From a phage, in the sequence record OR846562.1: a DNA stretch of 1,011 nt; one strand, written 5' to 3'. Under the pieces are notes generated by a model. That model saw only the letters and a program-made list of their open reading frames with translations, did no database searches and was not told the DNA's origin. Made by a program: the position numbers and the translations under genes. Shown here in pieces: positions 1 to 1,011 of this stretch (within the stretch, counting starts at the first letter, position 1; every line of letters begins with the position of its first letter).

Positions 1-1011
1 CCCAGCGGACCGTTAAGCTGTCCCCCTGTAATCGGCAATGCACCTACATCACCGGCAGTTGGTTTCATCAGACTATTAAATAGCGTATATGTCTGACCGC
101 TGGTTGAGTTTCCCGGCTGTACTGATGAATATTCAGGTATGCTGTACAGCGTGACATTTGAATTACCGGTGTAATCATATTGCGCAATTAACCAGTACGC
201 ATGCTGGCCGATATTAATATAAATATAGTAATTGTCGCCTGATGTATTAACCCATGCGACCTCGTTAGCAGAAGTCGGCGAGCGTCTCCACAGCGTGGCG
301 GTTATTCCAACAGGTGAACCATTACCGGCACGCAGCACTAATTCACTGATTGCCGCCTGCTCAAAGAAGCCAACGTTAAACCCAGCCCCTCCATATAATT
401 TAATCACCGCAGTTGATGTAGCCTGCGGCATTACAACCGTGGCGATTTTGTACCATCCAGAAGCATTATTAAATGTGATGTTGGTAGAGGTCACGGCACC
501 GATGGTTCTCGCAAATTGTTTTTTGTCAGGGATATCGCCGCCATTACTGTTTTTCGCCAGCCGTCCGTTCGCATTATCCATAGCCGCTTTAAGCGCTTTC
601 GGCGTTGCGGCCAGCGTCTCCGAATCGCTGTTTGTTTCACTGCTTAACTGCACAAACCCTTTTTCGCGGGTTGTGGCGTCCGGATGGTTACGGGATTGTT
701 CGTGTTTTCTCAGCGCATCGCTGGCCTGCTGCTCATTCAGCGTCCCTTTCGGGCGTAAATCCGTAATATTGCCGTTTTCATCAATACCCGCCACCGCAAA
801 CACATAATGCTGTACGCCGTTCTGCACATAATCCGCCAGGTTGTCAGCAACCGTAATACGGGACTGCACACCCCACACGCTGGTAAGTGTTCCAGTCCAG
901 CATACATCCAGCCAGACTTTGACCGGCTTGGTTGTCACGGTAATATTCAGATTTTCTGCAAGCGTTGTACGCAGCCCAGCCACATAGCCGGTACCTTTGG
1001 TCACATAAAAC
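1..1011 (-). CDS. Phage tail fibre protein, internal fragment (both ends outside the window); P2 gpH / Mu S / lambda Stf / E. coli StfR-like family. Codon phase: first complete codon at 1008-1010, last complete codon at 3-5.
   Basis: Hand translation of the reverse complement gives 336 codons with no stop: FYVTKGTGYVAGLRTTLAENLNITVTTKPVKVWLDVCWTGTLTSVWGVQSRITVADNLADYVQNGVQHYVFAVAGIDENGNITDLRPKGTLNEQQASDALRKHEQSRNHPDATTREKGFVQLSSETNSDSETLAATPKALKAAMDNANGRLAKNSNGGDIPDKKQFARTIGAVTSTNITFNNASGWYKIATVVMPQATSTAVIKLYGGAGFNVGFFEQAAISELVLRAGNGSPVGITATLWRRSPTSANEVAWVNTSGDNYYIYINIGQHAYWLIAQYDYTGNSNVTLYSIPEYSSVQPGNSTSGQTYTLFNSLMKPTAGDVGALPITGGQLNGPL. It contains the HEQSRxHPDA...KGFxQLSSxTNSxSETLAATPKAxK motif that I recall as shared by P2 gpH, lambda Stf and E. 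coli prophage side tail fibre proteins. Composition is normal for a folded protein, unlike the Ser/Ala/Leu-rich + strand ORF. Confidence 0.86.
545..704 (-). other. Conserved tail-fibre linker motif (residues about 103-156 of the window translation), the segment shared across otherwise unrelated tail fibre genes
   Basis: Encodes HEQSRNHPDATTREKGFVQLSSETNSDSETLAATPKALKAAMDNANGRLAKNSNGGDIPDK. From memory, P2 gpH has HEQSRRHPDA..KGFTQLSSATNSTSETLAATPKAVK, and E. coli StfR-like proteins continue with a similar DNANSRLAKNQNGADIQDK stretch. This is a recollection, not an alignment. Confidence 0.75.

Follow-up and report, generated by a model that had tools for sequence, protein, structure and literature searches.

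A probable mosaic joint at the Phage_fiber_2 motif of a Salmonella prophage tail-fibre gene

Introduction

Mosaic tail fibres that share the Phage_fiber_2 motif have been known since 1992–94. The exchange of fibre segments among unrelated phages goes back to Haggard-Ljungquist (1992) and Sandmeier (1992, 1994), as cited in PMC8986868 and PMC3945230, and De Paepe et al. demonstrated by experiment that relaxed homologous recombination lets temperate phages take up prophage DNA, stf-tfa included (PMC3945230). Here we analyze a stretch of 1,011 nucleotides of phage DNA (sequence record OR846562.1), referred to in its entirety as the window, whose minus strand encodes an internal part of a tail-fibre protein. 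A preliminary description had flagged positions 545–704 as the likely site of a recombinational junction. We conclude that this interval is a conserved mosaic joint of a modular Salmonella prophage tail-fibre gene, and assign that reading as a whole a probability of about 0.85. As the principle was already established in the early 1990s, the junction is ordinary and opens no new question. It does provide a clean and well-resolved case of Salmonella temperate phages re-assorting distal fibre and chaperone cassettes across backbones via a short joint. In what follows, all features lie on the minus strand, ‘upstream’ refers to the coding direction (i.e. higher window coordinates), and positions prefixed with q are coding-strand coordinates (window position = 1012 – q).

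The fibre genes of the Peduoviridae P2 (gpH) and PSP3 (gp19), which work with chaperone gpG, follow J and I, encode a PF12571 domain and Phage_fiber_2, and precede a Caudo_TAP gene, an arrangement that the window gene shares. Fibres of this type are the classic example of segments common to unrelated phages (Haggard-Ljungquist 1992). At the DNA level, window 523–684 matches the third PSP3 motif copy with 86% identity, and after the residues DIPDK, which lie in a box just beyond the motif, PSP3 continues with a different sequence, DLFVRRIGAARAF. The motif is present once in the window versus three times in PSP3 and in the P2-like prophage L002, and twice in proteins P0152 and P0156, which suggests unequal crossing-over at the motif. 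The triple copies are arranged in tandem (L002 4476–4900; L008, the PSP3 locus, 2215–2662). The proximal part of the window gene is also longer, ∼300 amino acids (aa) versus ∼150–250 aa in the P2/PSP3 type, and cannot be aligned in DNA with that of L002.

In phage Mu, the fibre protein gpS (PDB 5yvq, 8ju3) shares with the window the motif plus the NANARLAKDRNGADIPNK box, and aa 97–179 of the two proteins align residue for residue. The N-terminal and distal parts are unrelated. The order in gpS is motif, NANARLAKDRNGADIPNKPLF, then IQNLGLQE. The annotated boundary of the invertible G segment (Sc/Sv) lies at S codon ∼170, where the DNA is the gix site TTATCCAAAACCTCGGTTTACAGGAA, and in the alignment this border between constant and variable parts coincides with the junction zone of the window. 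In the alternative protein S′, a second box, QNGADIPGKDTFTKNIGA, directly follows gix.

Two further systems carry distal sequences related to those of the window. In SJ46, a P1-like phage-plasmid (Punavirus; Pin/Cin), the cassette adjoins pin and is invertible, and the homology takes in the chaperone gene. The cassette begins with AAAACCTTGGTTTAGGAG, followed by the box ALQKSQNGGDIPDKKQFARTIGAV, and is preceded by a crossover core (2446–2457 of locus L006), the AAACCTTGGTTT core lying 47 nt before homology to the window starts. In the window, unlike in SJ46, a hybrid box joins the cassette in frame to a proximal part of the Peduoviridae type. The genes sb24 and sb25 of ST64B belong to the cassette family of the window. 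The proximal part in ST64B is short (∼117 aa) and Mu-like; upstream of the cassette, a degenerate relic of a crossover site, LFLQNVGLGE, takes the place of the full Phage_fiber_2 motif.

Results

The window lies inside a tail-fibre gene. Its minus strand is open over all 336 codons in the frame that starts from base 1010 (window 1–1010), and its DNA is 99.9% identical to positions 2049–3059 of the 7.8-kb phage record OR850886.1 (L001). An open reading frame (ORF) of L001, 1393/1486–3726, encodes a protein of ∼746 aa, and given the position of the match the window covers approximately aa 189–524. The full protein contains PF12571, a tail-collar fibre N-terminus, at aa 3–158 and PF03406 (Phage_fiber_2) at aa 301–342 (73.7 bits). 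By Pfam, the gene order in L001 is Baseplate_J, a Tail_P2_I-like gene, the fibre, and a Caudo_TAP chaperone (3726–4301; PF02413, gpG/U type, E = 4.9e-31). Baseplate_J, gpI-like and fibre genes occur in the same order in L004, L011 and L012. The two domains and this neighbourhood identify the gene as a tail-fibre gene of a contractile-tailed phage, and every tested feature that defines Phage_fiber_2 fibres of the P2 gpH/Mu S/P1 S type (PF03406, position in the baseplate module, Caudo_TAP neighbour) was found. By analogy with that class, the product is predicted to be a trimeric fibre that binds a cell-surface receptor. The source is a Peduoviridae-like Salmonella prophage with a backbone of the SI7/sopE-prophage type.

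The closest relatives of the window differ on the two sides of the junction. Window 684–1010 (aa 1–109), the end of the backbone-specific, virion-attachment part, is 97–100% identical to L004, a locus that shares the backbone of the window (PhageMin_Tail, DUF2590, Baseplate_J, gpI-like), and 74–79% identical to the fibre genes of SI7, ESSI-2-like phages and Escherichia coli prophages. It cannot be aligned with L002, L003, ST64B or SJ46. Downstream, L003 and L002 are the nearest relatives and L004 is far. L002, with a classical P2-like backbone (gpR, S, V, W, J, I), is random relative to the window before q328 and ∼97% identical from q∼420 on. L003 represents a third backbone with a motif-less fibre, and it is random before q467 and 97.8% identical over window 1–545. 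Downstream identity to these two ranges from 93 to 98%. For ST64B sb24, 118970_sal3, SJ46 and ∼20 Salmonella P1-like plasmids, no upstream homology was found, and downstream identity is 86–88% from q455–467 on. The comparison with L004 runs in the opposite direction, with 97–100% identity over q1–360, a dip in the motif, ∼100% over q421–510, and 63–96% from q517; in places beyond q360 it falls to 63–83%. Mismatches are sparse to q516 and dense from q517, which places a switch at window 495/496. Since the distal pattern of L004 matches that of ST64B and SJ46, L004 carries another, ST64B-type distal allele.

The edges of homology fall into a narrow region. High-scoring segment pairs of the upstream type end at q484–491 (window 521–528); SI7 backbone homology (69% over L001 1–2539) ends at q491, that to PSP3 (third motif copy) at q489, and that to E. 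coli prophages at q484 or q292. Cassette-type pairs (ST64B, SJ46, 118970_sal3, L003 and the Salmonella P1-like plasmids) begin at q455–467 (window 545–557). The two types overlap by 30 nt, and we take this interval, window 521–550, which encodes N-S-NGGDIPDK, as the main cassette boundary. A further edge lies at 684/685, homology to the third motif copy of L002 and PSP3 beginning at window 684, so that the edges overall are 684/685, 521–550 and 495/496. For PSP3 (L008) and SI7 (L009), the edges are those of BLAST segment pairs, as global alignment misplaced both in the sliding-identity profiles.

Maynard-Smith's maximum chi-square test, with 5000 permutations, likewise locates breakpoints here. 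In comparison to L004, the best break is at 636/637, with divergence rising from 2.7% upstream to 11.3% downstream (P ≤ 0.0008). For L002 and L003 the change is a fall, from 29.7% to 4.2% at 620/621 and from 52.6% to 2.3% at 560/561, respectively (P ≤ 0.0002 in each case). All three breakpoints lie within 545–704, and the first two are inside the motif (549–683). The preliminary description had proposed that separate searches of the segments would return different relatives, with identity falling sharply near 545–600, and this is what the comparisons reveal. It had also pictured a single breakpoint at the motif. Breakpoints do lie there, but there are several, and the main boundary (521–550) is at or beyond the low-coordinate edge of the flagged interval.

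Two adjacent elements make up the joint. The first is the motif, described beforehand as a conserved linker at 545–704 common to the fibres of unrelated phages, a characterization that holds on both counts. Interval 545–704 corresponds to aa 103–155, the motif HEQSRNHPDATTREKGFVQLSSETNSDSETLAATPKALKAAMDNANGRLAKN occupies aa 103–154, and PF03406 matches aa 113–154 (window 549–674) with 74.9 bits against a cut-off of 22 (E = 3.6e-21), far beyond chance. The single copy, PDATTREKGFVQLSSETNSDSETLAATPKALKAAMDNANGRLAKN, spans aa 110–154 (window 549–683) as judged by PF03406, DNA homology and alignment with Mu gpS, and q306–490 matches DNA in ∼300 phage records, including P2-like, Stx-converting, Yersinia and Salmonella phages. 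The second element is a post-motif box, SNGGDIPDKKQFARTIGAVTS (aa 155–175, window 486–548), 95–100% conserved in nearly all relatives. Its left half, NANGRLAKNS-NGGDIPDK, is of the type found at the end of constant fibre parts, as in PSP3 and L011. Its right half, DKKQFARTIGAV, is of the type found at the start of variable cassettes, as in ST64B, SJ46 and L003.

Public data show that proximal and distal parts occur in many combinations. Across Enterobacterales, 322 homologues of the N-terminal module were detected (E ≤ 1e-10), in Salmonella, Citrobacter, Enterobacter, Escherichia, Cronobacter, Kluyvera, Proteus, Yersinia, Serratia and other hosts, with different Pfam domains behind the module. 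Among proteins with the pre-motif anchor SDALRKHEQSRNHPDA, we found 39 distinct junction strings and ∼10 unrelated continuations. Salmonella proteins whose N-terminal modules are 96–99% identical have at least six unrelated distal continuations and, conversely, at least five different proximal contexts precede a distal part of the window type. Divergence recurrently sets in after NANGR (aa 150), after DIPDK (aa 163) and after IGA/IGL (aa 172), points that correspond to the DNA breakpoints 560/561, 521–528 and 495/496. Cassette alleles and backbones thus reassort both ways, in line with the earlier suggestion that a conserved attachment part is joined here to a swappable distal one.

The first part of the distal cassette occupies window 3–485 (aa 176–336) and is 97.8% identical to L003 and ∼97% identical to L002, despite their unrelated backbones. 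Identity to the cassettes of SJ46 and ∼20 Salmonella P1-like plasmids is 87.6–87.9% over window 6–549, and that of the distal part to ST64B sb24, SJ46 and 118970_sal3 is 86–88%. In the full gene, the matches to ST64B and 118970_sal3 cover L001 2510/2515–4288 at 91% identity, taking in the distal fibre (the distal part of sb24) and the whole chaperone gene (sb25 in ST64B); SJ46 matches the same span plus an inverted chaperone end. This makes the cassette ∼1.8 kb long, starting at the NGGDIPDK box and ending with the chaperone gene, and its first 0.5 kb lies in the window.

Proximal and distal parts also differ in host distribution. All records with the distal part are associated with Salmonella (16 phage records of that host and 23 plasmids) apart from one ‘Enterococcus’ record, all named protein matches are from Salmonella, and the distal part was not detected in 5,426 complete E. 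coli genomes, even by blastn. The ‘Enterococcus’ record (OR844957.1, 1,843 nt, ‘Enterococcus phage Efm 3-10’) equals ST64B both in identity to the window (86.4%) and in query span, and is probably mislabelled or a contaminant. Relatives of the proximal part with the motif occur in ESSI-2-like phages and E. coli prophages (77–79% identity) and in Cronobacter phage ESSI-2 (71%). This distribution fits a host-specific cassette, a circumstantial argument, and it suggests that swapping the cassette may alter or set host range.

Discussion

These data are most simply explained by the following scheme. The proximal part with PF12571 would fix the fibre to the baseplate and co-evolve with the backbone, and the distal cassette plus chaperone (∼1.8 kb) would carry receptor specificity and have an evolutionary history of its own. 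Between them, the motif and the NGGDIPDK box (window ∼495–685) would make up a conserved piece of the shaft that is compatible with any partner. Recombination between co-resident phages or prophages within such short conserved coding stretches could swap cassettes in frame, the stretches being at once a portable source of homology and a place where splicing of the trimeric shaft is structurally neutral. Breaks within shared stretches mean that different recombinants break differently, as at 684/685, 620–637, 521–561 and 495/496. The ∼190-nt spread of breakpoints, the hybrid box and the variable number of motif copies favour recombination over a single site-specific cut. From the breakpoint positions, we infer that homologous recombination at the boxes probably made the junction, although our confidence in this specific mechanism is lower than that in the joint itself.

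The main rival is that a Din-family invertase (Gin/Cin/Pin/Min type) delivered the cassette at a gix/cix-like site that was later lost or degraded. Sandmeier proposed that invertases drive such exchanges, as reported in PMC3945230 and PMC8986868. A window-type cassette does sit inside the invertible segment of SJ46, next to pin and downstream of a core, and the junction aligns with the G-segment boundary of Mu. ST64B and 118970_sal3 keep degenerate crossover cores, and the core is present in Mu, SJ46 and L011. In the last of these, a sibling prophage with the window's backbone, AMDNANGRLEKNSNGSDIPDK precedes a perfect core, AAAACCTCGGTTTAAAAGAA, behind which lies a different distal part. This core (L011 8069–8079) encodes ENLGLKE, right after an NGSDIPDK box, and the fibre has a 96% identical N-terminal module. 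The 15-kb L011 locus shows one copy of the core and no invertase, and may hold a relic or part of a larger switch.

The window itself has no such site. Unlike in Mu, the crossover core AAACCNNGGTTT has no match in it with up to two mismatches, and none is present in L001. The 7.8 kb of L001 contain no second site, the ORF list reveals no inverted fibre/chaperone pair that could serve as an alternative cassette (downstream are the chaperone and other tail genes), and no invertase-like ORF is evident in that list, of which the Pfam scan covered four ORFs. In addition, the breakpoints extend over ∼190 nt, and the main one is ∼45–50 nt from the SJ46/ST64B site, with no fixed dinucleotide. An invertase step earlier in the history of the cassette is plausible, but we consider it unlikely that an invertase delivered the cassette to this gene.

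Another explanation involves no exchange at all, the distal part having simply evolved faster under diversifying selection for receptor binding. Distal fibre parts are generally more variable, and between the window and L004 the nonsynonymous divergence (dN) is indeed higher distally (0.065 versus 0.004). However, the synonymous divergence (dS) also rises more than threefold, from 0.109 (aa 1–124) and 0.075 (aa 133–171) to 0.363 (aa 172–336). Moreover, distal dS is only 0.034 relative to L003, where the fibre is 97.8% identical on a motif-less backbone that cannot be aligned, and 0.112 relative to L002 (∼97%). Near-identical distal parts on otherwise unrelated genes cannot result from rate heterogeneity, and the dS jump together with the low distal dS to L003 excludes its simple form. 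The L002/L003 distal identity and dS refute this explanation, to which we give almost no credence.

An assembly chimera, in which short reads of two prophages were joined via the shared motif or box, is just as improbable, because the exact 104-aa junction string (aa 97–200) recurs in independent sources: OR850886.1, P0257 (a complete 747-aa protein on nine contigs of up to 327 kb), P0049 (six contigs), and P0001 and P0055 (several serovars). Members of 90%-identity clusters mix alleles, and the exact string was found in one of the seven members tested (P0257). The region does confuse short-read assemblers. Related contigs L002, L003, L004, L012 and L013 stop within the fibre gene, a few hundred bases past the region homologous to the window, and most database homologues are labelled ‘partial’, short-read assemblies breaking in this mosaic, repeated region. 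Hence the junction combines a discontinuity in divergence, discordant ancestry that includes synonymous sites, and occurrence in independent assemblies.

Several observations weigh against a mosaic joint made by homologous recombination, or limit what can be said of it. At q376–391, the window differs from both L004 and L002, so that the crossover positions are approximate and carry no direction of transfer. Illegitimate recombination followed by in-frame selection, or invertase-mediated exchange, could leave similar patterns. As to function, the receptor-binding tip is beyond the window; it is similar to the P2 gpH C-terminus and has weak PDB matches to T4 gp34 and S16 gp37. An AlphaFold2 monomer model based on a 39-sequence alignment had a mean predicted local distance difference test score of 45.7, too poor to judge domain boundaries. 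Finally, base composition offers little help. The preliminary description had read a shift in GC (guanine plus cytosine) content as a sign of different origins, and its counts are exact: 255/540 (47.2%) for 1–540, 246/471 (52.2%) for 541–1011, and 72/180 (40.0%) for 61–240. The shift is not significant, however (P = 0.2–0.4). A change-point scan with codon permutation gave P = 0.40 for all GC, 0.22 for GC3 and 0.80 for GC1+2, with the best splits at window 252 or 477, away from the motif; a split at 540/541 has z ∼1.6 and P ∼0.11 by arithmetic from the counts. A compositional shift would be a supporting rather than a defining feature of a mosaic junction, and the one here says nothing about origin.

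The mosaic joint may have an invertible ancestor. Taken together, the loci imply a full order of motif, box 1, crossover site, box 2 and distal part, which is complete in Mu S′. The single hybrid box of the window, box-1-like on the left and box-2-like on the right, along with the lack of a site, fits a fusion of box 1 and box 2. We tentatively suggest that the NG(G/A/S)DIP(D/N)K box is a reusable splice signal duplicated around the crossover site, and that the window gene is a box 1 × box 2 deletion product that locked an invertible fibre and freed its cassette for transfer among Peduoviridae-like, Mu-like/ST64B-like and P1-like phages. This idea is only mildly new and may well prove wrong. 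If true and general, such deletions would connect the invertible switches with the mosaicism of tail fibres at large.

The joint could also be of practical use. The NGGDIPDK box (window 521–550) is a repeatedly used natural in-frame splice point, and could guide the design of chimeric fibres for retargeting phages or tailocins. Homology-based P2 chimeras provide a precedent for such design (PMC9594776).

Additional features of the locus

Outside the fibre frame, the window appears to be empty. The other frames contain no credible gene; an antisense ORF of 191 aa (window 232–807, plus strand, TTG start) has no support as one. An Rfam scan of the window detected no RNA family, and an internal-repeat search gave short chance matches only, without a second copy of motif or box. 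The single difference from OR850886.1 lies at window ∼210, in the codon for aa 267, where the window reads GDNYYIYIN and L001 reads GDNYDIYIN. In the alignment consensus, D is the residue of most relatives here.

A second conserved linker, MKPTAGDVGALPITGG, lies at window 6–65, the low-coordinate end. PSP3 homology resumes there at 78% identity and continues at 86.6% over L001 2995–3525, and the counterpart in Mu S′ is KPSAGDVGA. This linker probably marks a further mosaic joint, within the cassette.

Cargo genes seem to accumulate immediately behind the swappable cassette. In L011, the effector gene sopE (9382–10104, minus strand; SecIII_SopE_N, SopE_GEF) directly follows the fibre and chaperone genes. 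The equivalent position in ST64B is occupied by sb26 (L005 4566–5540, minus strand), which encodes a type III effector arginine glycosyltransferase.

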